A stretch of DNA of 64,000 bases from a virus. Made by a program: the position numbers and the translations under genes. The notes beneath the pieces were generated by a model that did no database searches, was not told where the DNA came from, and saw nothing but the letters and a program-made list of their open reading frames with translations. Below, one piece after another: positions 3,562-50,987 of the stretch (position 1 is its first letter; every line of letters starts with the position of its first letter). The stretch covers positions 32,887 through 96,886 of IMG/VR virus record IMGVR_UViG_3300001097_000002; one strand, given 5' to 3'.

Positions 3562-4038
3562 ATGCAAACAGAACACATAACCGCGGAAAATTATCAATAT
3601 AAGTTACCATTTGACAATAAAGAAGGCAAAGACGTTTTTCGGTACATACCGCATGCACCAGAGATTGAGGATGTTGACGAGGATTTTAAAGAAAAGAACT
3701 GCTATAAGAACGATACTTTTATTAGGGGTGCGTATGTCAGTTACCCATACACTAAAGAACATCTTGATGAAATGAAACGTTGCAAAGACGATTCTTTTTA
3801 CTTTATCCAAAATTACGTAAGAATTAACACGCTTGATTATGGTGTACGGTTATTTGACCCTTTCCAGTATCAGAAAAATATGATTAAGATGATGGACGAA
3901 AATCGTTTTACAATATTTACAACTTCACGCCAAGCGGGTAAATGCGTGCACGGTACTACTGAAATAACAGTGCGTAATAAAACCACTGGCTTGATAGAAA
4001 CAGTTGAGATAGAAGATTTCTTTTCGCGTTTTGAGTAA
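3562..4038 (+). CDS. gp17: Terminase large subunit fragment 1 (N-terminus to Walker A Lys) fused to split-intein N-half
   Basis: T4 gp17-like EMKRCKDDSFYFIQNYVRI, FDPFQYQKNMI, Walker A TSRQAGK, then intein block A CVHGTTEITV...VEIEDFF and stop. Confidence 0.92.
   Translation: MQTEHITAENYQYKLPFDNKEGKDVFRYIPHAPEIEDVDEDFKEKNCYKNDTFIRGAYVSYPYTKEHLDEMKRCKDDSFYFIQNYVRINTLDYGVRLFDPFQYQKNMIKMMDENRFTIFTTSRQAGKCVHGTTEITVRNKTTGLIETVEIEDFFSRFE
3943..4035 (+). mobile_element. Split intein N-fragment (31 aa, Cys1), site a (Walker A GK|[T/S])
   Basis: CVHGTTEITVRNKTTGLIETVEIEDFFSRFE matches intein N1 block C-x-x-G-x-T-x-I...I-E-D-[LF]. Confidence 0.88.
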
Positions 4039-4087
4039 CCACAAAAAAGGAGTGTAAACACACTCCCAAATAACGTAGCGTTAACTA

Positions 4088-4321
4088 CTAGGCAACCTCA
4101 CCATACAGTGATACAACCAAATCTTTTAATGCTTTAAGTCGGTAATCATATGCTGGATAATATCCCAATTTAACTTTTCCATACGTTGAACGCGCCATAC
4201 CAACTTCATCTGCAATTTCATCACCGATGAAATCTTTATTAATTATGTGGTGTAAAGCAACAAAGCGTTTATTGTTAGTGCTTGCTGAATGTTGGTCACG
4301 AACGTTACAGGTTGGTTTCAT
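4088..4321 (-). CDS. XRE-like helix-turn-helix protein (paralog of 5296-5658)
   Basis: EIADEVGMARSTYGKVKLG HTH pattern. Confidence 0.65.
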   Translation of the reverse strand: MKPTCNVRDQHSASTNNKRFVALHHIINKDFIGDEIADEVGMARSTYGKVKLGYYPAYDYRLKALKDLVVSLYGEVA

Positions 4322-4419
4322 ATAAATATTCCAATTATTAAAAGTTGTTGTGTTAACTAAATCCTACAAAACTAATTATACACGATTATTTAGGGTTGTC
4401 AATTACAAAGGTGGATTAA

Positions 4420-4986
4420 ATGTTTTTAAAGTATAGCGTAATGCTCAATATTATTTTAGTTATGTTATCAGTGACTTTATTTTACAAGTACGACAAAACA
4501 GTAAAAGAAGTAGAACTGGTTAAACTTAATTGCGAATTATCAATAACCGAATCTAACAATGATATTATTAAGGATAACATAATAGAACTTACACGTATTA
4601 AAGCATTACAAGATAAACAACATCAAAAATTCTTAGAGGTCAACGATGAACTTATTAACACGCAACAAAAATTCAATGCTGACATTAGCGCTGTTAACGC
4701 TACTAATGAGCGGTTGCTCATTGATGCACAAGAAGCAAGAAGTAAAGCCTTTACCACAGATATCAAATCTGACAACCGTTCAGAAGCCTTACGTGAATAT
4801 GCAACTATTAGAGAAGGATTACATGATGAATGTAAATATTCACTTATTGAGGTCTCAGAAGATGCTACAAGACTTCAGCAAAAAGTATTAGAATTTGATA
4901 AAAAATGGGATATCCAAAGTGATACTATACTAGGATTATCAGCCAATAAAAAAGCCGACACTAGTGACTTAGTACCGGCTCAGTAG
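4420..4986 (+). CDS. Inner-membrane spanin (Rz-like)
   Basis: N-terminal TM helix followed by long coiled-coil periplasmic domain; contains embedded lipoprotein ORF. Confidence 0.8.
   Translation: MFLKYSVMLNIILVMLSVTLFYKYDKTVKEVELVKLNCELSITESNNDIIKDNIIELTRIKALQDKQHQKFLEVNDELINTQQKFNADISAVNATNERLLIDAQEARSKAFTTDIKSDNRSEALREYATIREGLHDECKYSLIEVSEDATRLQQKVLEFDKKWDIQSDTILGLSANKKADTSDLVPAQ
4646..4891 (+). CDS. Outer-membrane spanin lipoprotein (Rz1-like), fully embedded in +1 frame
   Basis: GAGG SD; basic N-region, hydrophobic LTLALLTLL, lipobox LMSG|C, Pro-containing linker. Confidence 0.8.
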   Translation: MNLLTRNKNSMLTLALLTLLMSGCSLMHKKQEVKPLPQISNLTTVQKPYVNMQLLEKDYMMNVNIHLLRSQKMLQDFSKKY

Positions 4987-5001
4987 CAATTAAAACATTT
5001 T

Positions 5002-5262
5002 CTATGCTGCTAACTCTTTAAGTTTTACCACACGTAGCGAAGTACCTCTGTGGTTTTTAAGGACTTTCAAAGCCATTGACGAATCAAGTTCAGTAACTGT
5101 CTTTTTAAGACGTGTAAGTTTTTTCTTGTTAGAAATAACCCACGCTTTAGAATTAACTTGGGTAATACCATCATAACTATAAATGCGGTTACACGACATA
5201 CGATTAAGGTCTAATGCGGCACGTATAACTGTGGTAGTGTCGTGTGTTTGGCGATTACTCAT
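5002..5262 (-). CDS. Hypothetical basic protein
   Basis: ORF with AGGA SD. Confidence 0.6.
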   Translation of the reverse strand: MSNRQTHDTTTVIRAALDLNRMSCNRIYSYDGITQVNSKAWVISNKKKLTRLKKTVTELDSSMALKVLKNHRGTSLRVVKLKELAA

Positions 5263-5295
5263 AATGTTTCCTTTGATAATTGATTTAAGATTGTA

Positions 5296-5658
5296 TTACT
5301 TAACGTTGATTGTAATATCACCAACAAAGTTCAATGGGATATTAACAACAACTGACTTCTTCTTAGCGGCTGATTTCTTAACAGTAGTAGACTCTCCTAA
5401 TACCGATTTACCATGCATTTTAACTTCTTTGATATCTAAAATAGATGGACGAACTTCACTTTTAACTAACCGACTCATTGATTGCAAAATATCAGCATCA
5501 GCATAGAAGTATCCCAACTTGATTTTTGAAAATGATGAAGTTGGGATACTAAGTTTATTTGCAATAACACCATCACGATATTTCGATGATAATGTTTCGT
5601 GTAGTTTAACGAATTTTTTGTTACATCTGGTGTGGTTGTACTGACCGCGAAATGCCAT
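5296..5658 (-). CDS. XRE-like HTH protein (paralog of 4088-4321)
   Basis: NKKFVKLH...IANKLSIPTSSFSKIKLGYFYA aligns with NKRFVALH...IADEVGMARSTYGKVKLGYYPA. Confidence 0.65.
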   Translation of the reverse strand: MAFRGQYNHTRCNKKFVKLHETLSSKYRDGVIANKLSIPTSSFSKIKLGYFYADADILQSMSRLVKSEVRPSILDIKEVKMHGKSVLGESTTVKKSAAKKKSVVVNIPLNFVGDITINVK

Positions 5659-5731
5659 AAAATATCCTGTTTGATATAAATTGTTACTTGATTGTGTTGT
5701 TAAGTATAAACACTTTTAATATTAATGCAAG

Positions 5732-6007
5732 CTATTTTTTAACATTACGTTTATTACGCTTTCTGATAAGCGCCATTTGAATTTTATCAACAACCATCAT
5801 AACAAGTTTAAAAACGAATACTAATAATACGCAGGCGATAAGAATTACAAACAATAATAAGAACGGTCCCCAAATTGGTGAAAGCACCATTAACCAACTC
5901 ATGTCACTAAAATTAAAAACTTTGGCTGCTGCAAATATCGCTGTCAACATAACAAAGATACTCGTGCCACCAACATATACTGGTGATGTTGAACTTTCTT
6001 TACGCAT
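5732..6007 (-). CDS. Small two-TM membrane protein
   Basis: Two hydrophobic segments with MSWLMVLSPIWGP, basic C-tail. Confidence 0.7.
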   Translation of the reverse strand: MRKESSTSPVYVGGTSIFVMLTAIFAAAKVFNFSDMSWLMVLSPIWGPFLLLFVILIACVLLVFVFKLVMMVVDKIQMALIRKRNKRNVKK

Positions 6008-6066
6008 GATACTCCTTAACTGATTAATTAATAATAACTAAATAACTATACACGTATAACTATGAG

Positions 6067-6543
6067 ATGTCAATAACTATTATGGCTGGATATCCTAAAC
6101 CAAAAAGGTTCAAACCCGAAAACCCGAAAAAATATGTTGGTAAAGTAAATGACATTATCAGTCGTAGCAGTTGGGAAACAAAAATGTTCCATTGGTGTGA
6201 CAACAACCCTAGCGTGGTACGTTGGAACAGCGAGGATGTTATTATACCATACTTTAGCAATGCTGACGGTAAAATGCGCAAATACCATATTGATGTTTAC
6301 GCTGCTATTAAAATGAAAGACGGCAGCGTAAAACAATACATTATAGAAATAAAACCTTACGAGCAAACGATTAAACCAAAAATGCGCGGACGTAAGAAAA
6401 AAGAAACATATCTAAAAGAATGCTATACATTCCAAGTTAATACTGACAAGTGGCAACATGCAACGGCATGGGCTAAGCAAAACGATATGGAATTTATCAT
6501 AATGGATGAATATTCACTTGGTCTAAAAAAGAGAAAACCATAA
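6067..6543 (+). CDS. gp4: Head completion nuclease (TnsA-like fold)
   Basis: FKPENPKKYVG, SRSSWE, WNSE..IIPY, YHID, IEIKP, VNTDKW. Confidence 0.92.
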   Translation: MSITIMAGYPKPKRFKPENPKKYVGKVNDIISRSSWETKMFHWCDNNPSVVRWNSEDVIIPYFSNADGKMRKYHIDVYAAIKMKDGSVKQYIIEIKPYEQTIKPKMRGRKKKETYLKECYTFQVNTDKWQHATAWAKQNDMEFIIMDEYSLGLKKRKP

Positions 6544-6557
6544 TGCTAAGTGACAAA

Positions 6558-6818
6558 TTAAAAATACATAACCTTTGCTAATGCATCCATCGAATATCTG
6601 TCTAATCTCATAGTGTTTTTCTCGGTTGAGTAAACCGTTTCTTTAACAATAATTTTTTGGTGTATATTTCTCTGTATATATGTAAACACTTTATCGTTAG
6701 ATTCTAGTATAAATACGTCCTTAATTGGCTTGCCATGTTTATCTAAGCAAATCATGCCAATACGGTCCGCATTCATATTAGAACGCTCAAAATCAAAATT
6801 CTCATTAACGTGTGACAT
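6558..6818 (-). CDS. Hypothetical protein
   Basis: ORF with GGAG SD. Confidence 0.55.
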   Translation of the reverse strand: MSHVNENFDFERSNMNADRIGMICLDKHGKPIKDVFILESNDKVFTYIQRNIHQKIIVKETVYSTEKNTMRLDRYSMDALAKVMYF

Positions 6819-6865
6819 AGTTAACTCCAGTCATCATAACAATACTTGCATAGGTTGTCAAGTAA

Positions 6866-7366
6866 CTATCTTCTTTTATTCCATTGTAGTTCACTCCATT
6901 CAGTAGTGCTATCATGATGACCTAGTTTATCTGTCGATACCAACCCATTTTTGATAGTAATGCGAATATGTCGACCATCATCAGCAAATAGTAAATCACT
7001 TTCATCAACTTGTATAAGGTCAGTAATATATCCCACTGCTATACTTTTATTAACACCACCGTTTCCGTAGTGCTTACTATAAGGGGCGTATATGCCGTCA
7101 TCAAAATAAAATACTGGATACAGTGAATGTGTTACATTAGGTCCAAGATGAACACGCTCTAGCTTGATATATTTTAGCATGTTGTTGGTACTATGTACAT
7201 TAATAAAAAAATCATCTACTATTCTACGCCTACGAAAAATAGTATTAAAATAAAAACGTGCAATGTTCATTGCTGCAATGAAATTCAGTGCAGCAAATAC
7301 AGCACCAACAACGCAAGCAAAAAGAAATCCTACAGATAAACAAAATATTATAAAATCCATGACCAT
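6866..7366 (-). CDS. Membrane-anchored hypothetical protein
   Basis: N-terminal hydrophobic helix. Confidence 0.55.
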   Translation of the reverse strand: MVMDFIIFCLSVGFLFACVVGAVFAALNFIAAMNIARFYFNTIFRRRRIVDDFFINVHSTNNMLKYIKLERVHLGPNVTHSLYPVFYFDDGIYAPYSKHYGNGGVNKSIAVGYITDLIQVDESDLLFADDGRHIRITIKNGLVSTDKLGHHDSTTEWSELQWNKRR

Positions 7367-7684
7367 AATTCTTAACCCTCATAATCTATTTGGTTGTTTT
7401 AAGTGTAAACGTAACAGTATCTTCTTGTTGATTGCACGCGCTAATTCACAGCGTTTAATTATACCATAATATAATAGTCAATTAATATTGTTTATATTAA
7501 CACTCTTCTCACATATTGTACATATAAAAAAAGCCTAACACATTACGCATCAGGCTTTTTTGTTACGATAGTATTTATTTCTGACTTATTAGTTTAATCA
7601 GTTTACGCCACACGTACATAGTTGTGTTTGGCAAGTGTAGTATTACTAAAATAATAACAATTGTTGCTATAATTATATAAGTAT

Positions 7685-8794
7685 TCACTCGTCATTACCT
7701 AAAAAATCATCGCCACCATCCCAATCATCGCCACCACCTAACATAGTTTCATTAGTATCAACTTCGTCGTGAATTAGTTTACCACTGCTAATTTGATACA
7801 TAGTTTCCACGTCTGAATGGAATTTCTCTTCTGCAAACAAAGGACCCCAGAATTTAGAACTATTGGTATCTTTGGCGCGCCACTTCTGGTCTTCTTGTAC
7901 ACCTTCAATAACTCGACTATACCAACCATTTGATGGTTTTTTAATATAACCTACATTCATGCCCACTTCTAGCATACCAGTATACTTATTCATACCACCG
8001 TCAAAACGCATTTCGATTGGAAACTTAGATTTCTCTTTACAGTAACGACTTTTCTCAACGTTCATAATCAAGTTAAATCCAGTAATTTCTTTACCTTCTT
8101 TTTCTTGTTGTCGTCCCATAATGAACACTTGGTCACTTGAATACATGATACCTGAACCACCAGAAACAACAGCTTTTGAAAACAGTTCCATTGTTTGATA
8201 TACATGCGCTACCCCAACCATAACAATTTTCATGATACGCAAGTAAGGTGTGACAATACGTGTTAATGATTTTAGTTCTTTAGCACGTGTCATATCAGCT
8301 TTGGCTTTACCTTCTAGTGCATCCTCTGCTTCTTTCTTACTTGCTAAGTTACCTAAGCTGTCAATATAGATAAACACTTTCGCACCTGGATATTCTTTCT
8401 TAATCATATCAAGTTGTTTAACAAGGTCAAACTTCAAGTTTTCAATGTTAAGAAGTGGCATATGCAAGATACGTGAAGTATCAATATCCAAACTGTCAAA
8501 ATATGATTTAGGTGTACCGAACTCACTGTCATAAAATAACATGATAGCATCAGGATACTTGGTCATATACGCTTTCGCGCACACGTTAGACAGTACACTC
8601 TTACCATGTTTACTAGGACCCGCAAACAATGTCAAACCAGGTTTTAGTCCACGTCTTAAACTACCAGAGAACGCTAAATTCATTAGCGGAATATCAAGTA
8701 GAACATCCTCTTCGTCAAAAAATACACTGTTATCCAAACCATCAGTGCCTTCAATAATACTGTTTTTCTTTAACGCTTTTAGCATACTACTCAT
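7685..8794 (-). CDS. uvsX: RecA-like recombinase UvsX
   Basis: AGPSKHGKS Walker A, FYDSEFG, IDSLGNLASKKE, DMTRAK, VSGGSG, KSRY. Confidence 0.96.
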   Translation of the reverse strand: MSSMLKALKKNSIIEGTDGLDNSVFFDEEDVLLDIPLMNLAFSGSLRRGLKPGLTLFAGPSKHGKSVLSNVCAKAYMTKYPDAIMLFYDSEFGTPKSYFDSLDIDTSRILHMPLLNIENLKFDLVKQLDMIKKEYPGAKVFIYIDSLGNLASKKEAEDALEGKAKADMTRAKELKSLTRIVTPYLRIMKIVMVGVAHVYQTMELFSKAVVSGGSGIMYSSDQVFIMGRQQEKEGKEITGFNLIMNVEKSRYCKEKSKFPIEMRFDGGMNKYTGMLEVGMNVGYIKKPSNGWYSRVIEGVQEDQKWRAKDTNSSKFWGPLFAEEKFHSDVETMYQISSGKLIHDEVDTNETMLGGGDDWDGGDDFLGNDE

Positions 8795-8803
8795 ATAATT
8801 CCC

Positions 8804-10295: not shown

Positions 10296-10390
10296 ACTTT
10301 AAATATTCCTTATCTTTTGATACGATTGGATTATCGTAATTAAATATGTAACGTTTATCAGTATATTGTTGATACATAATAAACTTAATA

Positions 10391-11113: not shown

Positions 11114-11203
11114 ATATCACCAATGTTAGATGTTAAAAAAGGGCACCTAATTATTATAGGCGCCCATTAGTATAACATAAAATTTTATAATAGCAAGATA
11201 TAA

Positions 11204-11476
11204 TTAGATTTGCAATTTCAATTTATTAGCAGCACAATACGCACGCATAGCTTCATCAAGCAAAAGTTTATTATAACCAATCTCTATTGAATACATGTCA
11301 TTTACTAGCACCAGCGGCACTAAATTACCTTTCATATCAACATTAACCTTTGCGATAGGTTTTATATTAGTATCAAAAGTTGTCTTAGTTATATATTTCA
11401 TATCATGGTTTTTATCAAAATGATATAGAATGATAAAATCATCTGCGTTTGGTTTGTAGCTCATATAATACTCCAA
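11204..11476 (-). CDS. Hypothetical protein
   Basis: ORF with GGAG SD before MSYK. Confidence 0.55.
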   Translation of the reverse strand: MEYYMSYKPNADDFIILYHFDKNHDMKYITKTTFDTNIKPIAKVNVDMKGNLVPLVLVNDMYSIEIGYNKLLLDEAMRAYCAANKLKLQI

Positions 11477-11491
11477 ATAATAAATTAGTTT

Positions 11492-39969: not shown

Positions 39970-40212
39970 ATGGGCGGTAATATGAAAGCAAACGAAAAAC
40001 TGATGACTGAGTTGATAGAAACGTCTAAGTATGAAGATATCCAACTATTTGAAGTTGTGGCAACGTATGCAAAAGAACACGATATTGACCCTGTTGAATT
40101 AGTTAAAATGTTCGATAAAGACTTCATTTATCAAATAAAAGCAAGTGCTACAATTAACAATCAACGTTTAAAAAACATTGAGCCAAAGTTAAGAAGACGT
40201 AGTTTAATTTAA
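39970..40212 (+). CDS. gp33: Late transcription coactivator
   Basis: EVVATYAKEHDIDPVEL...IKASA; synteny gp33-gp59-gp32. Confidence 0.7.
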   Translation: MGGNMKANEKLMTELIETSKYEDIQLFEVVATYAKEHDIDPVELVKMFDKDFIYQIKASATINNQRLKNIEPKLRRRSLI

Positions 40213-40243
40213 ATTAATATGTTATACTATTGGAGATTATTAT

Positions 40244-40819
40244 ATGAAAGATAGAGATTACCTAAAAACGTATCGCATTTACGTTGGTTTAAAGCAACAT
40301 TTTAATCCTGAAAATGACTTTGTATATACTTCACCTGATGCATTATCGAAGTTGAGCATTGATAGTTTGCTAAAACGTAAGGATAGAAAGTTTTTTATCC
40401 GACTTACTCAAAAGCTTCACCCTGACCAATACGAATATATCCTTAGTATGTTTGTTAGAAATACTGATATGTGGGTTGGCGAGATGATGGAGTTAGTCAA
40501 TAAAGAATACCACAGCCAACGTATGGGTCGATTAGGACAGATTGATTATATTGTTACTAGTGAACTAGAAGAATTTATGCTACTAAATAGTGGTACATTA
40601 CGCGAAAGCTTAGACGCTAATGATAATATTCCACACATTGCAAAGAACAATAATGTATCAATGGAAACAAAATCCGTATTGAACAAAGTTGTAAATTTTA
40701 CTAATGAAGAAACAATGAACCCATTGTGGAATAAAATGAGATTTGATATTGACAACTATTCTAAATTGTTGTATATTAATCCCACTATAATCAGCAGGGT
40801 GGAGGAGCTATTGACCTAA
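40244..40819 (+). CDS. gp59: Helicase loader
   Basis: YRIYVGLKQHF, KRKDRKFF..L, MWVGE. Confidence 0.85.
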   Translation: MKDRDYLKTYRIYVGLKQHFNPENDFVYTSPDALSKLSIDSLLKRKDRKFFIRLTQKLHPDQYEYILSMFVRNTDMWVGEMMELVNKEYHSQRMGRLGQIDYIVTSELEEFMLLNSGTLRESLDANDNIPHIAKNNNVSMETKSVLNKVVNFTNEETMNPLWNKMRFDIDNYSKLLYINPTIISRVEELLT

Positions 40820-40886
40820 TACACTATATCAGTATGCACTAGCAGTAATATTTTATAAAATAAACGTTTAATAAAGGAAGTATACA

Positions 40887-41762
40887 ATGGGATTTAAAAA
40901 TCTAAAAGCTAAATTAAAAGACTCTACTAGCAGCCTTGATAAAATCAAAAGCCGTATTGAGAACGAAACCTCAACTACTGATTATAAAGATGAACGCTAT
41001 TGGAAATTCTCAGTTGATAGCTCTGGCAGCGGTATGGCTGTTATTCGCTTTATGCCAGAACCTGAAGGCGAAGACTATCCCTATGTAAGTTACTATCAAC
41101 ATTCTTTCCAAGGACCAACAGGTAAGTGGTATATTAACCGCAGCCGTACGTCACTCGGTAAAGGTGTACCTGACCCAGTATCTGAGGCCAACAGTGAGTT
41201 ATGGGAAACTGGATTAGACGAGAATAAAACAATCGCACGTAACCGCAAACGTAACTTGCGTTATGTAAGTAACATTTATGTCGTTAAGGATGGTAAGAAT
41301 CCTGAAAACGAAGGTAAAGTCATGTTGTGGGAATACGGCCCATCAATTTACAAAGTTATTGCTGATGTAATTGCTCCACCAGAAGAGTATGAAGAAGAAC
41401 CGCTAAACCCGTTTGATTTATGGAATGGTGCCGACTTTAAACTTAAAGCGTACCTGGATAGCAAAAGCGGATACCGCAGTTATGATAAATCTTCATTCAC
41501 TGATTCTTCTGCGTTACTTGATGGTGATGATGAAAAATTAGAAAAAATGTATGATAGCTTATATAGCCTATCGGAAGTAGTGGCTGACAGCAAATATAAA
41601 AGCTATGATGAACTTAAAACATGGTTTGATACTGTTACTGGTAAAACCAAAGCGGCAACTCCATATAACAATGATGCCGGCGAAGAAGCTGATACTACCA
41701 AAGAAAGCTCAACTGACGATGATGACGATGATGACGATTACTTGAACTTTTTAGAAGACTAG
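40887..41762 (+). CDS. gp32: Single-stranded DNA-binding protein
   Basis: DERYWK, AVIRFMP, HSFQGPTGKWYI, NPENEGKV, PFDLWNGADFKLK, acidic tail. Confidence 0.96.
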   Translation: MGFKNLKAKLKDSTSSLDKIKSRIENETSTTDYKDERYWKFSVDSSGSGMAVIRFMPEPEGEDYPYVSYYQHSFQGPTGKWYINRSRTSLGKGVPDPVSEANSELWETGLDENKTIARNRKRNLRYVSNIYVVKDGKNPENEGKVMLWEYGPSIYKVIADVIAPPEEYEEEPLNPFDLWNGADFKLKAYLDSKSGYRSYDKSSFTDSSALLDGDDEKLEKMYDSLYSLSEVVADSKYKSYDELKTWFDTVTGKTKAATPYNNDAGEEADTTKESSTDDDDDDDDYLNFLED

Positions 41763-41784
41763 TAGTTACTGATTGTTAGTGTAT

Positions 41785-41815
41785 AAAAAGCGTAGATTAA
41801 TTTCTACGCTTTTTT
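41785..41815 (+). terminator. Rho-independent terminator
   Basis: aaaaagcgtaga-ttaatt-tctacgcttttt. Confidence 0.85.
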
Positions 41816-41863
41816 ATTGTCTGTTAAATAGTAATACATACTTTAATAAAAGGACACTCTCAC

Positions 41864-42061
41864 ATGGTTATGAAAGCACAATCGAAACCAGAACAATTAT
41901 CAAATACATTGCAACATAGTAGTGTTCAGAGTAGTAACACTAATGTATACCAGCCTGGTATTGCGCCTACAGTGGCGCGCAATATGATTTCACAGAAGTT
42001 TGATAAGCCAGTAAAAGCAATGAAAGTCAGTGAAGTATTCGATACATACTTTAAAGGATAA
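41864..42061 (+). CDS. Small hypothetical late protein
   Basis: AAGGA SD; TAAATA upstream. Confidence 0.55.
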   Translation: MVMKAQSKPEQLSNTLQHSSVQSSNTNVYQPGIAPTVARNMISQKFDKPVKAMKVSEVFDTYFKG

Positions 42062-42065
42062 AAAT

Positions 42066-42830
42066 ATGTTAACAATGAAAAATATATTCAACCACCTACG
42101 TAACATGTCAGGTGGAAAACTCACACAATCACAAGTAAACGCATCTAATGCAATCATAGCAGCAAATGGCGTTGACGTTTTAACTGATGCACTTGGTATG
42201 GACGCAGATGGTGGTTATAAACTAACATCACAGGCACTCAGAAACATATACAGCAATGCCGATATGGACTTTGTTGATATCATCAATAAACACGCAAGCA
42301 CGTTTGGTATTACCACTAAAAAACGCATGGCGATGTTTATAGCGCATGCAATACACGAATCAAATGGATTTAATTCACTACAAGAAAGTTTTAACTATAG
42401 ACCATCGCGTCTAAAGGCAGTATTTGGTTTTCGTATACCATCATTGAACTTCGCCACGAACATACTTGCGAAGGGCAAAGAAGAGGTTGCAAATCACTTG
42501 TATGGTGGTCGATACGGTAACAAAGGTCCAAATGACGGTTGGTTATACAGCGGTAAAGGTATTGGTGGATTAACGTTTAAAGGTAACTACATAGTAATGC
42601 AACGAGTAATGAGCAAACATGGTTTACACTATGATATTGTTAATAATCCATTGTTGCTATTGAACAAAGAAGTCGCTACACTGTCATATATGGCATACTG
42701 GCTCGACAAAGACTTAAATTCATATGCTGATGCGGGTAAAATCATAGGCGCAACTAAGGTTATCAATGGCGGTCGTAATGGTTTAGCTGATAGAAAAAAA
42801 TATTACAAGCTAGCGTTAAACTACTTGTAA
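42066..42830 (+). CDS. GH19 (chitinase-like) endolysin
   Basis: AMFIAH..HESNGF..LQESFNY, GNKGPNDGW.Y.G.G, TKVINGGRNGLADR. Confidence 0.9.
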   Translation: MLTMKNIFNHLRNMSGGKLTQSQVNASNAIIAANGVDVLTDALGMDADGGYKLTSQALRNIYSNADMDFVDIINKHASTFGITTKKRMAMFIAHAIHESNGFNSLQESFNYRPSRLKAVFGFRIPSLNFATNILAKGKEEVANHLYGGRYGNKGPNDGWLYSGKGIGGLTFKGNYIVMQRVMSKHGLHYDIVNNPLLLLNKEVATLSYMAYWLDKDLNSYADAGKIIGATKVINGGRNGLADRKKYYKLALNYL

Positions 42831-42886
42831 TATGTAATTGTTTGTTGTACACTAAGAGGTAAGTCACTAAGGGCTTACTTTTTTTT

Positions 42887-43492
42887 ATGGAGTGTTACAT
42901 GAGAAAGAACGTAATCTTACTAAACGGGCCACCTGGTAGTGGTAAAGATACAATTGCTGATTTAATCGTCAGTAGTCACAAAGCTGAGCATTTACGTTTT
43001 AAAACCAAGCTGTACGAAATTACAGCACTACTTAATAATATTGATTTAGAAACGTTTATCAAGTATGCAACAGATAGAGAAACAAAAGAGTCGTTGGTGC
43101 TTGACAGAGGACTAACACCACGTGCGCTACTCATAGAGGCTAGTGAAAACGTTATCAAGCCATACTATGGTGAAGACTATTTTGGTATTGTAGTAGGCGA
43201 AACAATACGTGATTCATATAGTGATTTGTTTGTTATCAGTGACGGTGGATTTGTTGATGAATTAATTGCATTGATTGATGCCGCAGAATTAACAGGTGAT
43301 GACATTAACATAACAGTTATTAAGTTATTCAGAGATGGTTGCACGTTTGATAATGATTCACGCGAATACTTGCCAGAAGAAGTTTTAAGCAAATATGGTA
43401 TTACTGCGTTGTACGTATACAACAAGGTCACGATAGAGGAACTGGAAAAATACGTTAACATGCTTTGTTCATATATCAAAACCGCCGCGTAA
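42887..43492 (+). CDS. gp1: Deoxynucleoside monophosphate kinase
   Basis: NGPPGSGKDT, TPR..LI..SE..IKP.YG, ISDGGF..E, F..DSR. Confidence 0.85.
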   Translation: MECYMRKNVILLNGPPGSGKDTIADLIVSSHKAEHLRFKTKLYEITALLNNIDLETFIKYATDRETKESLVLDRGLTPRALLIEASENVIKPYYGEDYFGIVVGETIRDSYSDLFVISDGGFVDELIALIDAAELTGDDINITVIKLFRDGCTFDNDSREYLPEEVLSKYGITALYVYNKVTIEELEKYVNMLCSYIKTAA

Positions 43493-43521
43493 TATAATAT
43501 ATTTTACTTTAAGGGAAAACA

Positions 43522-44115
43522 ATGAATTTAACGTCATTACATTTAGCAATTGATACGGAAACATTAGGAGTTACGGATAATGCTATTATCACTTCTATAG
43601 CAGTAACACCATTTAAACTTATTGATACAGGTGCCACATTTGAAACGTTACTAGATGACACGTTCTACGTAAAACTAAAAGCAAAAACACAGAACAAGTT
43701 ATACGGGCGTACTGCTGATAAGTCAACTTTAGAATGGTGGGCGAAACAAGGCGATAATGTAAAAGAACATAGTTTTAAAAGAGCATCAACTGACGTTCAC
43801 CCAAAAGAAGCTCTAATCGAACTTAATAAGTTCATTACAGGTACTGGTTACGAATGGAATAGCAGTTATATTTTTGAGCGAGGTATGGGTTTTGATACTA
43901 CTAAGATGCAATCATTGTATGAAGACTGCCAAGTTAAAATGGGATTTAACTTTTGGCGTGCACGCGAAATAAGAACCATTAATGACTTGATTGGTGACGT
44001 ATCGAATGGAAAGTGGGAACCGGAAGAAGGTCGTCCCACTTCGTTTATTGAGCATCATGCCAAACATGATGCAGCACTAGATGCTTATAGATTAATTAAG
44101 CTTTTTGATTTGTAA
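43522..44115 (+). CDS. dexA: DEDDh 3'-5' exonuclease (DexA-like)
   Basis: IDTETLG, TLEWW..Q, RG..FD, R.IRT, HHA..DA..D. Confidence 0.85.
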   Translation: MNLTSLHLAIDTETLGVTDNAIITSIAVTPFKLIDTGATFETLLDDTFYVKLKAKTQNKLYGRTADKSTLEWWAKQGDNVKEHSFKRASTDVHPKEALIELNKFITGTGYEWNSSYIFERGMGFDTTKMQSLYEDCQVKMGFNFWRAREIRTINDLIGDVSNGKWEPEEGRPTSFIEHHAKHDAALDAYRLIKLFDL

Positions 44116-44118
44116 TTT

Positions 44119-44472
44119 TTACTTAACGTACATATCACAATTCCTATGTAATAACTCAATAAAATAAGAGTCCATTTTATTAGGCTCCTTATACGATAAG
44201 AAAAAGTATAAGGAGTTAATATATACCATTTCTTTGTTGTTGCATATATTCTCATATATAGTATAGCTTAGTTCTATCCCAAAAATATTAGATGAAATGA
44301 TTATATTGTTAAGTAATAGTTTATCATTTATTGGTTTTTCTTTGATATATTTGCGTACACAAGTTCGGACACTGAATATGATATTGACAGTTTTATCAAT
44401 ATCATATTCAATCCAGTGATTGTGCAAACGCAAACGCTGTTTTATATCCTTCCTAGTGTACGCATTGCTCAT
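44119..44472 (-). CDS. T4-like conserved hypothetical protein
   Basis: KYI.......LLLNNIII..NIFG pattern. Confidence 0.6.
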   Translation of the reverse strand: MSNAYTRKDIKQRLRLHNHWIEYDIDKTVNIIFSVRTCVRKYIKEKPINDKLLLNNIIISSNIFGIELSYTIYENICNNKEMVYINSLYFFLSYKEPNKMDSYFIELLHRNCDMYVK

Positions 44473-44476
44473 ATTA

Positions 44477-44872
44477 TTAGTCTTTGTTTTCTTTAGTGTC
44501 TACGTCTTTTTCTTTAGACGCGCTTTCTTCAACTTTTGAAGTCTTGGTAGTCTTAGGAGGCTTGTCCTCTGACTTAGTTTGTTTATTTATTTTTGTCGCT
44601 GGCGGTGCAACTGGTGGCGTCTCTGGTTTTTGTTCGATAATTGTCGCTTCTGCTTCTGTCTTCTCGTTCGCTTCAAACGCATTTAATGATACCTTGTCAG
44701 AAATAAGTTCAGCAATCGGGTCGGCATCAGGTAAGACATCATCAACATACGTTTCGTTGATACCAACAACTTGAAGTGTACCGTCTTTTAATACGATAAC
44801 TTTAACTTCTTTTGATTCTTTTACAGCATCATTGACCATGTTACGTTGCACGGTGTGTGTTTTGTTTGACAT
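44477..44872 (-). CDS. Hypothetical protein with charged low-complexity tail
   Basis: ORF with AAGGA SD. Confidence 0.6.
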   Translation of the reverse strand: MSNKTHTVQRNMVNDAVKESKEVKVIVLKDGTLQVVGINETYVDDVLPDADPIAELISDKVSLNAFEANEKTEAEATIIEQKPETPPVAPPATKINKQTKSEDKPPKTTKTSKVEESASKEKDVDTKENKD

Positions 44873-44902
44873 AATATTATCCTTTTAAATTTATAGTAAT
44901 GG

Positions 44903-45094
44903 TTAAACTACAGGCTCGGGTGCAGGGTCATCACTGTTCACATCAACATTAACATGTTCTGTAAATGTAGGCTCGACTTCATTTTTATTAACTACTAAGA
45001 TGTTGTCATCTCGTACAATTATTTTTACAGTATCTTTATTAGCACGTGCATATGCGTTTAAGTCAGCAATTGCATTTTTTAGAGCAGTTTCCAT
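44903..45094 (-). CDS. Small hypothetical protein
   Basis: VKIIVRDDNILVV resembles VKVIVLKDGTLQVV of the next gene. Confidence 0.55.
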   Translation of the reverse strand: METALKNAIADLNAYARANKDTVKIIVRDDNILVVNKNEVEPTFTEHVNVDVNSDDPAPEPVV

Positions 45095-45183
45095 ATTATA
45101 TCCTATTTGCTTTTTGTTTTAAAGTAGTGTATAGTTGTTGAACAATAGTGTAACAACTAATATTATTTACTAGGTAATTTTTT

Positions 45184-46251
45184 ATGAAATACGTTGATAA
45201 AACATATATACGATTGGTTAGTAGCTACTTAGACCGTTTTAAAGAAACATCTAGTGAAGTATATAACTTTCGTTGCCCATACTGTGGAGACAGTGATAAG
45301 AGCAGAACATTGGCGCGTGCGTACCTATTTGAGTCTGATGATACCTATTTATTTAAATGTCATAACTGTGGACATCCAACAAACTTACAACAATTTATTA
45401 AAGACCAAAGCTTTTCGTTATACACTGAATATCGTAAAGACAAGTTATTATCACGCGGAAAACCTAAACCTGAACCTACTGTTAAAATTGATACAAGCAC
45501 CATAAAAACAAACAATGGAGCAGTTTTTTCGGTTGGTAGTCATGTCGGTAATAAAATTATTAAATCTCTAGACAACGCTGACATTATTGGGACTACTAGA
45601 GACTATTTATACAACAGGGATATACCAAGAGCCAAGGTACCATCATTATATCACGTGGCAAATATTAACTATGTAACGCAACAAATACCTAAGTATAAAG
45701 ATAAAAAATTTATGGACGTGTCTGCTATAGCCATACCCTTTATTGATGCTGATGGTATTGTAACGCATATACAATTTAGGATGTTCGAGGGCACAATGCG
45801 TTACATGACACTCGAATGTGAGACTGGCGCCATAAAAATATTTGGACTTGATACTGTCGATAAGAACAAGATGGTATATGTATTTGAAGGCCCTTTTGAC
45901 AGCATGTTCTGTAATGGTATAGCACTTGCAAATGGTTCATTGCATACGTTTATACCATATCTAAACAAGCATTTTAAGAATTACACTCTAGTTTATGATA
46001 AGGACTTGGTTAGTAATAAAGACATACTAGCAAGTTTAAAAAAGAGTATAGTTAACGGTTGTAACGTGTTACTATACGACACTGTTATTATTGACAGTGA
46101 CGCTAAGGATTTAAACGATATGGTGTCCGACGGTTTGATTACTGATACGGATTCATATCTATTAAATAACACATATAAAGGATTCAAAGCAACAATGTAC
46201 TTGGATAGAATTAAACAAATTGATAAGCACGCTTCACCATTTTCCATGTAA
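45184..46251 (+). CDS. gp61: DNA primase
   Basis: NFRCPYCGDS, FKCHNCG, EGPFDSMF, KDLNDM. Confidence 0.95.
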   Translation: MKYVDKTYIRLVSSYLDRFKETSSEVYNFRCPYCGDSDKSRTLARAYLFESDDTYLFKCHNCGHPTNLQQFIKDQSFSLYTEYRKDKLLSRGKPKPEPTVKIDTSTIKTNNGAVFSVGSHVGNKIIKSLDNADIIGTTRDYLYNRDIPRAKVPSLYHVANINYVTQQIPKYKDKKFMDVSAIAIPFIDADGIVTHIQFRMFEGTMRYMTLECETGAIKIFGLDTVDKNKMVYVFEGPFDSMFCNGIALANGSLHTFIPYLNKHFKNYTLVYDKDLVSNKDILASLKKSIVNGCNVLLYDTVIIDSDAKDLNDMVSDGLITDTDSYLLNNTYKGFKATMYLDRIKQIDKHASPFSM

Positions 46252-46264
46252 TAGGATATTTTTT

Positions 46265-47113
46265 ATGATTATTTTTGACACTTCATCAATTGCATACAGC
46301 ATGCTATATCAGCTTGATAATCAGGATATTGGTTTGCTTCGACATGCAATATTAAATAAAATCGGTTATATAATGCGTGAATTAAAACAGTATGATAATT
46401 GCACAAAAGAAGTCATTCTTGCATGCGATTCACGTGGTAACTGGAGAAAAGAAATATTTGCCCCTTACAAGGCAAGCCGTAAGAAAAATCGAGAATCCAC
46501 TAGTGATGTTGACTGGGGTAAATTCTTTCTTGATTTCAATGCGCTAATTGATGAATTTAGAACTAATATGCCTTTTAAGGTTTTGTTAGTTGACCGTGCG
46601 GAGGCTGATGATATTATTGCCGTATTATGCCAACAGCGTAGTGATGATAACATTACTATTGTAAGTCCTGATAAAGACTTTAGACAGTTATGCAAGCCCA
46701 ATAGCAACGTAAAACTATATAGTCCAATAGGTAAGACTGGATTTATTGATGCTACGGATTATGAGCTATTTGAGCATGTAATGACTGGTGATTCGTCTGA
46801 TGGTGTTCCAAATATTTTGAGTGAAGGTACTGTATTCATTGATGGTATTCGTCAAACAACATTGACCGCTAAGAAAAAGCAAATACTAAAAGATTTTAAA
46901 TTCAATATTGATAATGCACCAATCATGACTGATGCAATTAAAGAACGTATTGATATGAACACACAGCTTATTGACCTTGCATATGTGCCCAAGGATATCG
47001 TTGAGAATGTACTTGAACAATATGACAGCGCAAAAGTACCAAAAGGTAAAGTTTTTAACTATTTTGTAAAAAACAAATTAACAAAAATCATGGAGAGTGG
47101 TATATATAAGTAA
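46265..47113 (+). CDS. rnh: RNase H / 5'-3' flap exonuclease
   Basis: WRKEIF..YKASR, EADDII, SPDKDF.QL, GDSSDGVPNI. Confidence 0.95.
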   Translation: MIIFDTSSIAYSMLYQLDNQDIGLLRHAILNKIGYIMRELKQYDNCTKEVILACDSRGNWRKEIFAPYKASRKKNRESTSDVDWGKFFLDFNALIDEFRTNMPFKVLLVDRAEADDIIAVLCQQRSDDNITIVSPDKDFRQLCKPNSNVKLYSPIGKTGFIDATDYELFEHVMTGDSSDGVPNILSEGTVFIDGIRQTTLTAKKKQILKDFKFNIDNAPIMTDAIKERIDMNTQLIDLAYVPKDIVENVLEQYDSAKVPKGKVFNYFVKNKLTKIMESGIYK

Positions 47114-47266
47114 TAGTATTCAAGTAAATAACATTATACTTTTACAATAAAGTTGACAACCACCTACTATATTGCTATACTTATATAAGTAATAGTATTC
47201 AAGTAAATAACATTATACTTTTACAATAAAGTTGACAACCACCTACTATATTGCTATACTTATATA
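47103..47266. repeat. Perfect 79-bp tandem duplication, each copy with a sigma70 promoter
   Basis: Period 79 (47103-47181, 47182-47260); each has TTGACA-17nt-TATACT with TG extension. Confidence 0.95.
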
Positions 47267-47300
47267 GTAAATTAAATAACACTTAAAAAGGAATAACATT

Positions 47301-47746
47301 ATGATTACTTTTCAAGATTACCTAACCTAAACGAATCGAACTACACTAATACAGTGCAAGAAGATGATAGTAAAGAAGCTGAAAAACTGTTAACGCTTGC
47401 TATTAAAGAGCTGAAAAGTGTAGGTCTTAAACATGGCCATAAACTATTTGACACCAAAAAAGGTTCTCCGTATGCTGCGGATAATATGATATTTCCACGT
47501 GAAACTTATAAATTTCAGAGTTCTGATAGTGTTAGTGTTGGCGAAGTAATACAGTACATGTCACTAGGTATTGGCATTCACGCTGAAAATGGTGAATTCA
47601 CACTAGTATCGTACGGCAGTAAAAAAGCAAAACCACATGAACTAAAAGCATTAGATTTAATTGTTTACGAAACTGGAAAGCGTATTAAAGCCAGTGATGC
47701 TGTGGGTCCAAGTGACCATCACTATACAATAGAAGACTTGTACTAA
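47301..47746 (+). pseudogene. Internal-head-protein gene disrupted by 5-nt duplication
   Basis: ATG ATT ACT TTT CAA GAT TAC CTA ACC TAA; removing one CCTAA gives MITFQDYLNESNYTNTVQEDD in frame with ORF 47354-47746. Confidence 0.8.
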
Positions 47747-47793
47747 GATTTAAAGGTTAATAATTTAATACAGATTTAGGAGTATTATGTATT

Positions 47794-48075
47794 ATGGGAT
47801 ATAAATTTACATGCACGTCATGTGAACATTCATGGGATATCGTTTATATGGGTAGTTACACACCTGCACTTATAACGTCTTTCCCGTGTCCTAAATGTGA
47901 CAATAAAAGCATAACAGCAGAAAAAGTTGAAGGTGAGATTATTGAGAACAAAGAAATAAGCGCTGCCATTATTAAAGGTGAACATAACATGCGTCCATCA
48001 GGCGACTTTATTAATCATCTACAAGATATTAAAAAGGCACACGTTGGTAATACCATGCAAGATAAATGGACTTAA
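47794..48075 (+). CDS. FmdB-like zinc-ribbon protein
   Basis: YKFTCTSCEH...PCPKC, F...L..IKKAH. Confidence 0.75.
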   Translation: MGYKFTCTSCEHSWDIVYMGSYTPALITSFPCPKCDNKSITAEKVEGEIIENKEISAAIIKGEHNMRPSGDFINHLQDIKKAHVGNTMQDKWT

Positions 48076-48111
48076 ACAATAGTTACACAATGCTAATAAA
48101 AGGCTACGCAC

Positions 48112-48489
48112 ATGTCACCTTTTCAAGATTATATTTCAAACAGTAGAAATTTAAAAGAGAGTGGGCCGTCAAACGACCAAGTTAATTTATTGAAATCTAG
48201 TACGGAACGAATCATTAAAAGACTTAAAACGAAATTAAAGTATTTGAACGTTACTACGAACGGTACTGAAATTGTTGTTGGTAATGATAAAATGAATAAC
48301 GACCCTAAATTATATGCAATGCTCTCTACACGAGGTGAATTAAGAGTGTACCAATCGTCTCATAGTGAACACACTGTTCAGTCCCTTACTAAATTATCTA
48401 ATATGGCTAAAGAATTAGCCGATAATAATGATTTTATTATTGATAATTTACGTACTGCTCAAGCATTAGTTGATGAAATTTTAGGTTAG
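48112..48489 (+). CDS. Putative internal head protein
   Basis: MSPFQDYIS..RNLKES. Confidence 0.7.
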   Translation: MSPFQDYISNSRNLKESGPSNDQVNLLKSSTERIIKRLKTKLKYLNVTTNGTEIVVGNDKMNNDPKLYAMLSTRGELRVYQSSHSEHTVQSLTKLSNMAKELADNNDFIIDNLRTAQALVDEILG

Positions 48490-48498
48490 TAACCTACT

Positions 48499-48534
48499 AA
48501 AAAAACCACTTACTTAATTGCAAGTGGTTTTTTT
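48499..48534 (+). terminator. Rho-independent terminator
   Basis: aaaaaaaccacttac-ttaatt-gcaagtggttttttt. Confidence 0.8.
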
Positions 48535-48581
48535 ATGCATTGTGTAAATACTAATAAAATACTATTACAAATGAGGGTGGC

Positions 48582-48926
48582 ATGGATACTTTAGGATTTA
48601 CAAGTTGGATGAACGAAGGTGGTGATATTTTTAATGGTGACCCAGTAACTACACAAACCGCCAGCAGTAACGTTAACACAATGGCTGGCACTACCAGTAA
48701 AACAACTGAGCGCACTACTAAGCCAAATATCAGTAACATCGAAATTGGGGTTGTTGAAACAGGTATCACCGATGGCACTACGCATGAACAAGTGGCTAAA
48801 CCAACAATCTTTGACCCATACACGCATGAGGTTGTACCTGCGTCACAAATTGCAGACGAGGACATGGATATTTTTACACCTAGTATTAAATTAACAGACT
48901 TGTTCAACACTAATATGAACCCTTAA
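48582..48926 (+). CDS. Thr-rich late protein with possible targeting leader
   Basis: MDTLGFTSWMNEG; TAAATA upstream. Confidence 0.6.
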   Translation: MDTLGFTSWMNEGGDIFNGDPVTTQTASSNVNTMAGTTSKTTERTTKPNISNIEIGVVETGITDGTTHEQVAKPTIFDPYTHEVVPASQIADEDMDIFTPSIKLTDLFNTNMNP

Positions 48927-49008
48927 TTCACTGTCCATGCAATACAACAAACGCGCTTATACAGCGCGTTTTTTGTGAACAGTAAATAATAATAAAAGCG
49001 GGAATAAC

Positions 49009-49365
49009 ATGGACATAAAATCATATGATTCTTTTGCATCAAACTCTAATTTCAACATTCTAACAGATGATGGATACAAACATTTTAGTGGTGTTACAAA
49101 GTCACTATTAGTTGACCCGCCTATTGAATTAACGCTCAATAACGGTGAAATAATTGTGTGCACCATCAACCACAAATTATACGTAACTAAAGACAAATGG
49201 GTATATGCTAAGTTTTTAAATGTTGGTGATACACTATACAGCCCTTTTAATAAGGTGCGCATAACAGCTATTGGTGACAGTAAAGAACGTTACGTGTACG
49301 ATATAATAGATGTAACAGATACTAGCAGTTACCTAGTAACACCGTACATGATTAAAAGTAGCAAT
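49009..49365 (+). mobile_element. Split intein C-fragment, site b (just before Walker B)
   Basis: NILTDDGYKHF.G, block B CTINH, LNVGD, block F VYDI, ends KSSN|C. Confidence 0.88.
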
Positions 49366-49731
49366 TGCTTATACTTAGACGAATTTGCGTTTGTTGAAAA
49401 TGACGTAGAATTCTATACTGGTACATATCCTACAGTAACATCTGGTAAAAACACAAAGGTCATCATTACTTCCACGCCACGTGGTTTGAACATGTTCTAT
49501 AAAATCTTTAATGATTCTCAACAAGGTAATAACAAATACAAGTCATATAAAATCGGTTGGGAGGAGCATCCTGAGCGCGATGAAGAATGGTACTTAGAAA
49601 CCAAATCTAACATCGGTGAGTCAAAATTTTCCGTGGAATATGAGAGTTTGGCACACGAAACTATAGTAAGTATAAATGATAATAACACACTAACAAGTAT
49701 GTGCATTGGAGATTTATATGACTATATGTAA
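49009..49731 (+). CDS. gp17: Terminase large subunit fragment 3: IntC(119 aa) - extein (Walker B to linker, 93 aa) - IntN(28 aa)
   Basis: CTINHKL, YVYDI...SSN|CLYLDEFAFV...ITSTPRG.N.FY...W.EHP.RD..W...FSVEYE|SLAHETIV...IGDLY. Confidence 0.93.
   Translation: MDIKSYDSFASNSNFNILTDDGYKHFSGVTKSLLVDPPIELTLNNGEIIVCTINHKLYVTKDKWVYAKFLNVGDTLYSPFNKVRITAIGDSKERYVYDIIDVTDTSSYLVTPYMIKSSNCLYLDEFAFVENDVEFYTGTYPTVTSGKNTKVIITSTPRGLNMFYKIFNDSQQGNNKYKSYKIGWEEHPERDEEWYLETKSNIGESKFSVEYESLAHETIVSINDNNTLTSMCIGDLYDYM
49645..49728 (+). mobile_element. Split intein N-fragment (28 aa, Ser1), site c (EYE|CKF)
   Basis: SLAHETIVSINDNNTLTSMCIGDLYDYM. Confidence 0.85.
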
Positions 49732-49814
49732 TAGTGATTTGATTGAGACAGTAGAAATCTTAGCGGCATTTGGATTACCACTCTAATCAAGTGTCTCGAA
49801 TTTTTGGAGTTGGT

Positions 49815-50165
49815 ATGAGCAAAGTACATCTAGGGTTTAAAAAGAACACTAAAAATTTAAAAGTGTTAACACCAAATGGACACGAAGAATTCTACGGAAT
49901 AAACAAAATACGTGTCGATGAATATATACGAATAAAATTCAAAGAACATAAAGAAATACGTTGCTCGATTGACCACCCGTTTATACAAGAAAATGATTTA
50001 CCAATAAAAGCAAAACATATTGATAAAAGCAAACATATAAAATGTATTGATGGATTTACTACTTTAGAGTATTCGCATGTTGTTAATAAACAAATTGAAC
50101 TATATGATATTGTAAACTCTGGTAGTGAGTACATATATTTTTCTAATGGGATATTAAGTCACAAC
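49815..50165 (+). mobile_element. Split intein C-fragment (117 aa), site c
   Basis: NTKNLKVLTPNGHEEFYGI, CSIDHPF, LYDIVN, SNGILSHN|C. Confidence 0.92.
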
Positions 50166-50987
50166 TGTAAATTCATGGGTTCTGCAGGTACACTTATTAA
50201 TGGACGTACACTAGAACTATTATCATATAGTGAACCATTGCGTGAAACCGACCACAGACACAAAACAATCCGCGTGTATGCAGAACCTGTGGAATCACAC
50301 AAGTATGTAACCATTGTTGATACTAGTGAAGGTGTACAGCTTGATTTTAGTGTTATCACTGTTATTGACGTTTCTAAAATGCCTTACAAACAAGTATTCA
50401 TGTACAAGGATAATACCACCCCACCAATCACGTTTACTAGTATTGGTGCAGAAGTAGCGGAACGTTATAATAGCAGTGTAATGCTTGTAGAAAATAATAA
50501 CAGTAGTGGTGGTATTGTTGCAAACGGGTTGTGGTACGATATCGAGTATGAGAATATGCTAACCACAAAAGTAGCAGTAAATACACGTGATACCGAAATT
50601 GGTTTTGATAACAAAAGTATACCGGGTGTTAGAACCACCAAAAAAACAAAAGCCGTTGGTTGTACATACCTCAAAAACTTAATAGAAAGCAATCAGCTTG
50701 AAATTGTTGATTATGACACTGTGGCGGAATTAACAACGTTTGTTCGCGTAGGAAAAAGTTATGAAGCTGAAAAGAACAAACATGATGATATTGTTATGAC
50801 GCTTGTTATGTTTGCATGGTTTACATCACAGGATTATTTTGAGGATGAAACTGGCATTAGTTCATTAAGTGATATGAATGATACGTTGATGGAAGATAAC
50901 GACATGGACTTTGTGCTTGGCTTTATCAGCAACGGCACGGAGAAAAATGAAGAAGTTGATTTATTTGATAAGGGCTTGTTTAATTAG
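49815..50987 (+). CDS. gp17: Terminase large subunit fragment 4: IntC + nuclease domain
   Basis: CKFMGSAGTLI, VDTSEGVQLDFS, VENN, GVRTTKKTK..GC..LK.LIE, HDDIVM. Confidence 0.95.
   Translation: MSKVHLGFKKNTKNLKVLTPNGHEEFYGINKIRVDEYIRIKFKEHKEIRCSIDHPFIQENDLPIKAKHIDKSKHIKCIDGFTTLEYSHVVNKQIELYDIVNSGSEYIYFSNGILSHNCKFMGSAGTLINGRTLELLSYSEPLRETDHRHKTIRVYAEPVESHKYVTIVDTSEGVQLDFSVITVIDVSKMPYKQVFMYKDNTTPPITFTSIGAEVAERYNSSVMLVENNNSSGGIVANGLWYDIEYENMLTTKVAVNTRDTEIGFDNKSIPGVRTTKKTKAVGCTYLKNLIESNQLEIVDYDTVAELTTFVRVGKSYEAEKNKHDDIVMTLVMFAWFTSQDYFEDETGISSLSDMNDTLMEDNDMDFVLGFISNGTEKNEEVDLFDKGLFN

Follow-up and report, generated by a model that had tools for sequence, protein, structure and literature searches.

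A 64,000-base stretch of viral DNA (the window, bases 32887-96886 of the linear 96,886-base IMG/VR record IMGVR_UViG_3300001097_000002) encodes the large terminase TerL, the counterpart of T4 gp17, in separate open reading frames (ORFs) that begin or end in halves of inteins. The contig comes from a hypersaline-lake metagenome and represents part of a T4-like (Straboviridae-like) phage genome; CheckV placed its completeness at ~43%. We consider it probable that this gp17/TerL has been invaded at three sites by atypically split inteins and that trans-splicing restores one TerL from the pieces. The initial annotation of this DNA had proposed that three atypically split inteins join a dispersed terminase of four or more pieces, an interpretation that our analysis partly supports and that appears right in substance. 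The proposed insertion sites would be site a, following the lysine of Walker A (GK|T); site b, two residues ahead of the strand that carries Walker B (..RGxSxN|C-LYLDE); and site c, at ..EYE|CKFMGS, where the ATPase domain gives way to the nuclease domain.

Terminase sequence was recovered from three plus-strand ORFs at 3562-4038, 49009-49731 and 49815-50987, hereafter fragments 1, 3 and 4. Fragment 1 (158 aa) begins with a 127-aa N-terminal extein (E1, 3562..3942) that matched PHROG terL families (E = 3e-20) and ends at ..SRQAGK, a Walker A motif without its Thr/Ser, followed directly by a 31-residue intein N-fragment that starts with Cys1 (IntN-a, ..T.ITVRNK.TG.IE..I..F; 3943..4038 with the stop codon). 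Fragment 3 (240 aa) consists of a 119-aa intein C-fragment (IntC-b, 49009..49365), a 93-aa extein that runs from Walker B (CLYLDEFAF) via the C-motif (TST) to ..VEYE (E3, 49366..49644), and a 28-aa N-fragment with Ser1 (IntN-c, SLAHETIV..IGDLYDYM; 49645..49731 with the stop codon). Pfam Intein_splicing matched its first half (E = 1e-5), and Terminase_6N matched its extein at profile positions 98-181 only. Fragment 4 (390 aa from the ATG at 49815) likewise gave an Intein_splicing match, in its 117-aa C-fragment (IntC-c, 49815..50165), and then Terminase_6C (E = 2.5e-7) in a 273-aa extein with an RNase-H-like nuclease domain (E4, CKFMGSAGTLING.., 50166..50987); E4 also matched gp17 of many T4-like phages by tblastn. 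A TTG at 49770 offers an alternative start for fragment 4, but the ATG at 49815 is the likely one because it is preceded by a GGAG Shine-Dalgarno sequence and aligns with the N-terminus of the CatC intein fragment discussed below. The terminase motifs are thus intact and spread over three ORFs: SRQAGK in the first, LYLDE and TST in the second, and IVDTS, LVENN and HDD in the third. Re-derivation reproduced the coordinates and segment lengths (31, 119, 28 and 117 aa) of the initial annotation, its placement of the fragment 1 break at Walker A and its estimate that fragments 1 and 3 lie about 45 kb apart, which we measured as 44,971 bases.

The intein halves have the features of the atypically split TerL inteins, in which the split falls after block A and leaves an IntN of ~25-37 aa and an IntC with blocks B, F and G. 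Both long C-fragments are homologous to the HINT domains of the AceL/GOS/Cat family: IntC-c aligned over residues 8-116 with CatC (PDB 6DSL_B), the "Cat" consensus C-fragment of the AceL-TerL/GOS-TerL family, at E = 8e-17, and IntC-b at E = 7e-5. Block B (Thr/Ser)-x-x-His, block F ..YD.., the terminal Asn and Cys+1 are present in both. IntC-b has T-I-N-H in block B and VYDIIDV in block F and ends ..KSSN before Cys+1; IntC-c has S-I-D-H and ends ..NGILSHN before Cys+1. In five aligned homologous middle pieces, the block B Thr and His and the block F Asp (T52, H55 and D98 of IntC-b) were invariant, as were Asp-Glu of Walker B. The predicted nucleophiles are Cys1 for intein a, ..SN|Cys for intein b, and Ser1 and ..HN|Cys for intein c, while the +1 Thr of intein a was deduced from all 120 of the best relatives of the putative fragment 2 described below. 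IntN-a is homologous to the IntN of ALY07096 from vB_VmeM-32 (KU160494), a plaque-forming Vibrio phage isolate with a complete genome of 199,912 bp, and to over 60 other IntN-a peptides whose loci also contain an IntC-a..SHN|T piece; its C1, T, R, N, K, I and F show little or no variation across 15 relatives. IntN-c belongs to a class shared with other Ser1 site-c IntNs that follow ..EFE|. The unusual Ser1/Cys+1 pair has been reported for GOS-TerL (PMC11766414).

We infer that trans-splicing, rather than mere association, joins the pieces. It is decidedly unlikely that the pieces instead form an active terminase without ligation, with the intein halves serving only as high-affinity docking domains. 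Such an arrangement would have a precedent in a fragmented phage ribonucleotide reductase that is assembled via interaction domains derived from mobile elements (PMC3045599), and the lack of a penultimate His in IntC-b would fit it. However, all splicing nucleophiles, the terminal Asn and the block B Thr/Ser-x-x-His are kept here and are invariant in relatives, IntC-c is closely homologous to inteins shown to splice, and a P-loop broken at GK|T would be unlikely to function unligated.

On the splicing interpretation, a fourth piece is required, a fragment 2 that would comprise IntC-a, an extein starting with Thr (E2) and IntN-b and so supply the segment from Walker A to Walker B. We did not find this segment in the window or in the whole 96,886-base record with Pfam in six frames, where the only Terminase_6N match was fragment 3 and profile positions ~11-97 were not found. 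A profile hidden Markov model built from 168 Walker A-to-B segments gave no match to E2 on the record (best E = 3.7), an IntC-a profile of 58 sequences matched only the IntCs of fragments 3 and 4, and BLAST, phmmer and tblastn with the phage's own inteins and the vB_VmeM-32 piece found no fragment 2 on the contig. Among 80 metagenome loci from a scan with the fragment-2 alignment, none belonged to this phage (<=50% amino acid identity, no nucleotide match), and a scan with fragment 1 found no close relative in IMG/VR. The small terminase gp16 was also not found on the whole record with a jackhmmer profile of 134 small-terminase ORFs. Because fragment 2 and gp16 are both missing, part of the packaging module must lie off the contig, and fragment 2 is presumably carried on the unassembled ~57% of the genome.

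Genes of the required type are abundant elsewhere. When the vB_VmeM-32 piece was used as query, the protein database returned stand-alone proteins of 236-247 aa with the layout IntC..SHN|T..E2.. plus an IntN. A fragment-2 profile built from the four of them that split after RGxSxN matched 757 clusters at E <= 1e-10, and 109 of the 120 best matches were stand-alone 220-260-aa proteins of the form IntC..SHN|T..RGxSxN|C-IntN, with SHN|T in all 120. The RGxSxN|C split falls at the very residue where the terminase part of fragment 3 starts, and its Cys occupies the Met position of the T4 motif MIYIDE. IntC-a plus E2 was encoded in at least 506 IMG/VR stretches. At one locus (L173), the 6 kb to either side of a fragment-2-type gene contained no further TerL piece. 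The proposal that fragment 2 lies outside the window fared unevenly: the piece is absent from the window and its class is common, but it was not found in the rest of the ~43% complete record either.

The same relatives bear on the possibility that TerL is in more than four pieces or has an extra link, either because the A-to-B segment is itself split or because an extein-less IntC-IntN adaptor intervenes. The ~57% of the genome that is unseen leaves room for this, and the initial annotation itself spoke of "at least 4". We nevertheless hold it to be unlikely, as the A-to-B segment is a single piece ending where fragment 3 starts in 109 of the 120 best relatives, and no further IntC was present on the 96.9 kb.

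For site c, the predicted splice junction could be compared with an allele that has no intein there. With fragment 3 as query, 1.84 billion representatives yielded 2540 matches, and among the 150 best 50%-identity representatives more than 20 were 220-260-aa proteins that span the whole query (IntC-E3-IntN). The best representative match was a 486-aa sister allele (P0036) that lacks the site-c intein and is 71% identical to the window in IntC-b, 95.7% in E3 and 85% in E4. In this protein E3 runs straight into E4 (..KFAVEYECKFMGSAGTLING..), which equals the end of the window E3 joined to the start of E4; the junction VEYECKFMGS, predicted before this comparison, is thus present uninterrupted in a sister phage. 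An intein-less allele showed the precise excision site in this way for site c only. Two 240-aa proteins (P0190 and P0193) that end in a Ser1 IntN-c fell in the same 90% cluster as the intein-less alleles (P0036/P0186, 486 aa) and were 98.6% identical to them over the shared 212 residues. We read this as a presence/absence polymorphism of the split site-c intein in near-identical backgrounds, which suggests a recent gain or loss. As all 12 cluster members start with IntC-b, the sister lineage as a whole appears to depend on a fragment 2. Despite the polymorphism in the sister lineage, no endonuclease gene was seen beside the window's own site-c copy.

Terminases in several pieces proved frequent in public contigs. 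Among the best 80 of the at least 506 IMG/VR stretches, 28 were two-piece and ~20 three-piece loci, and L108 and L122/L130 are colinear four-piece loci (E1|E2|E3|E4). Among the 80 best metagenome loci, six were classed as four-piece, two of these being duplicates of L122/L130. L174 is a clean four-piece case from a metagenome, its pieces 2 and 3 being separated by a GIY-YIG gene. A further four-piece locus (L186:1-8806) carries E1 and a likely small-terminase ORF in inverted orientation ~5 kb from E2|E3|E4; here the site-a split again coincides with a rearrangement. As proposed for the window TerL, these loci have four ORFs, and the same three regions carry a short IntN and a long IntC, with middle pieces of 232-256 aa; IntC-E3-IntN middle pieces occur in L108, L122, L174 and L186. 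Unlike in the window, their pieces lie close together, in some cases interspersed with GIY-YIG genes, and site b lies 2 residues further upstream in L108 and L174. Dispersal was seen in a complete 305-kb record (G001), where E1 lies 14 kb from E2E3|E4. Relatives of fragment 1 are 156-168 aa long and, down to 50% identity, have the common end GK|C..T.IT(V/I)RNK.T..(I/V)E..I..F, beyond which a variable tail leads to the stop codon; because the family keeps this IntN core at such divergence, we argue that IntN-a is under purifying selection. On a 250-kb viral contig (L142:9066-13359), a truncated ORF with IntC-a, E2 and a partial E3 is followed directly by a live IntC-a+E2+IntN-b piece with an almost identical IntC-a; the IntC-b downstream ends His-Gln, not His-Asn, before Cys+1. 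The four-piece design and the dispersal each occur elsewhere, and the window combines both. That a four-piece, dispersed terminase had gone undescribed stands in part: a full-text literature search, with most subscription journals outside its coverage, found descriptions of single-split terminases, in Dassa et al. (2009) and in reviews of AceL/GOS/Cat-TerL, but none of three- or four-piece ones, yet the arrangement is not unique: public contigs frequently hold colinear four-piece TerLs as well as two- and three-piece TerLs that are dispersed, and one dispersed case has been cultured.

These relatives also make it very improbable that fragments 1, 3 and 4 are decaying remnants and that an intact or less fragmented TerL lies in the unassembled part of the genome. 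Such remnants are conceivable in a genome of which ~43% is covered, and L142 provides an example of decayed partial TerL sequence next to live pieces. Here, in contrast, all three ORFs are intact and retain Walker A, Walker B, the C-motif and the nuclease motifs, fragments 3 and 4 lie in the canonical terminase position ahead of gp18, many relatives conserve both fragment families, and the complete relatives vB_VmeM-32 and G001 have the split version only.

The cultured dispersed case is vB_VmeM-32. In its genome, E1 followed by GK|C.. (a 34-aa IntN) is encoded directly after gp16, and a 704-aa ORF before gp18, ~78 kb off, encodes a 118-aa IntC that ends SHN|TT.. and then the remaining TerL; no other TerL is present. 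The isolate thus shares site a, a similar IntN and the dispersal with the window, but it has two pieces only; its intein after Walker B is a contiguous mini-intein, and site c has none. The paper on vB_VmeM-32 does not mention inteins.

The isolate is relevant to whether the 45-kb separation is an assembly chimera of two related phages. The record is a metagenome assembly, and Logan contigs of one hypersaline-lake metagenome run, which reproduced window 40000-59999 without differences at an even depth of ~14x, break at a short, higher-depth repeat near window 47132-47237. Still, a chimera is extremely improbable: GC content is even along the contig (0.33-0.37), depth is equal across the Logan break (14.6 vs 13.8), T4-like core genes occur once each along the contig, fragment 1 was found in the database on a 97.8-kb contig, and the isolate genome of vB_VmeM-32 also has fragment 1 apart from the remaining TerL. 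The interruption of the Logan contigs spans window 47103-47237, and two short Logan pieces at the break, of 85 and 54 bases, are covered 2-3 times as deeply as the flanking sequence, pointing to a short repeat with further copies elsewhere in the genome or sample.

The relationships among the inteins were examined with a FastTree phylogeny of 78 split IntCs, a short tree with weak resolution inside groups. Site-a IntCs formed one clade (support 100), separate from the AceL/GOS-like IntCs, and those of sites b and c fell together in a separate group, within which the window IntC-b placed with site-b sequences and IntC-c with site-c sequences. IntC-b and IntC-c shared 28% identity over 61 residues, and IntN-a and IntN-c shared 14%.

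Several observations weigh against the trans-spliced, four-piece interpretation. Fragment 2 of this phage was not found, and we infer the count of four. IntC-b ends Ser-Asn, without the usual penultimate His; because other site-b IntCs end KN, NN or SN, this looks like a lineage trait. The Logan run is probably the source sample of the record and hence gives no independent support. Finally, IntN-a resembles the IntNs of site b, with a mean identity of 39% and a maximum of 56% to 109 of them over the first 27 residues, ungapped (site-b consensus CVDGDTIITVKNKKTGEIENITIEELE; window IntN-a CVHGTTEITVRNKTTGLIETVEIEDFF), and a mis-pairing of IntN-a with IntC-b that skips E2 is conceivable from these peptides. 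Because of this resemblance, orthogonality of inteins a and b cannot be read from sequence, and since mis-pairing would delete the ATPase core, a/b specificity is to us the most interesting question. As a possible trace of selection for orthogonality, identity between a and b IntNs was compared within genomes (0.25) and between genomes (0.29), a comparison with n=9 that is too small and noisy to use.

The window TerL resembles several known systems in part. AceL-TerL, GOS-TerL and Cat-TerL (PDB 6DSL) have the same host protein and the same kind of split, with an IntN of ~25-37 aa and an IntC of ~104-122 aa; AceL-TerL and GOS-TerL were described as single splits, whereas the window TerL has two further ones, at the P-loop and Walker B. 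In Aeromonas phage PX29, gene 17 is likewise split and annotated as an N-intein part (17A) and a C-intein part (17B), but these two pieces are adjacent and accompanied by a GIY-YIG domain, unlike those of the window. The cyanobacterial DnaE genes dnaE-n and dnaE-c lie far apart on the Synechocystis chromosome. As we propose for the window TerL, the DnaE split intein joins halves of an essential enzyme from distant loci by trans-splicing; DnaE differs in being cellular and in having one canonical split (long IntN, short IntC) and two pieces, whereas the splits of the viral TerL are atypical. A split intein likewise divides an essential phage enzyme into separately translated ORFs in the "fractured genes" of Dassa et al. 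(2009; PMC2677866), which include a Lake Gatun gp17 locus with a single fracture and a 122-residue C-part. There the N-part, a free-standing endonuclease gene and the C-part are adjacent on one strand with one break, compared with three in the window. We did not meet an endonuclease gene of this type between the window halves, and the 83 nucleotides between fragments 3 and 4 hold no ORF.

The genomic surroundings of the two sites differ. Fragments 3 and 4 immediately precede gp18 and the usual gp19-gp23 block, and upstream of them lie genes for gp32, a lysozyme-like protein, a deoxynucleoside monophosphate kinase, two exonucleases (presumably one T4 dexA-like and a second RNase H-like), a primase and four small ORFs; the gp13-gp16 block was not in its expected place upstream of the TerL pieces. 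Fragment 1 stands alone on the plus strand amid minus-strand accessory genes, near a head-closure gene and uvsX. None of the ten ORFs flanking the pieces has a homing-endonuclease domain, which bears out the statement of the initial annotation that no such gene is adjacent. A GC-rich hairpin (GGAGTGT-aaac-ACACTCC, 4049..4066) between fragment 1 and the convergent minus-strand ORF 4088-4321 is likely a bidirectional terminator, and a terminator-like hairpin with a T-run can be read on the plus strand just upstream of fragment 3 (48951..48974). The T4 late-promoter motif TATAAATA was not enriched (14 matches vs 17 expected) and is uninformative on co-regulation. One of four unannotated ORFs between the exonuclease gene 46220-47113 (phrog_107) and fragment 3, at 47794-48075 (93 aa), has two CxxC pairs and gave weak zinc-ribbon matches only.

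In the mechanism we propose, the inteins would be split very near their N-termini and every piece would be translated separately. Each ~30-aa IntN would dock into a long, pre-folded IntC and complete the HINT fold, and protein trans-splicing would then ligate the exteins into one TerL of ~580 aa. Because the halves would associate in trans, nothing would oblige the pieces to lie side by side, and a genome rearrangement may have stranded fragment 1 among accessory genes while fragments 3 and 4 kept the ancestral place upstream of gp18. Any cross-reaction among the three inteins would presumably be too limited to do harm. We give about even chances to a stronger version, in which this would be a one-pot, four-fragment ligation in vivo, with the IntC or the extein context enforcing correct pairing of the closely homologous IntNs a and b and the split sites acting as tolerated rearrangement breakpoints.

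The split-intein terminases already known and in use for protein engineering have a single split; in this phage, and in hundreds of related proteins, the terminase appears to be cut three times. This implies three trans-splicing reactions side by side in one infected cell that preserve an essential ATPase, and it poses a specificity question, namely how the similar IntN-a and IntN-b peptides would be told apart. If true, the arrangement would be a natural candidate set of orthogonal short-IntN inteins for multi-fragment ligation. It also matters for annotation: in automated pipelines, such phages come out as lacking a terminase, or the pieces are labelled hypothetical. For the phages themselves, these data suggest that inteins may let rearrangement scatter an essential gene.

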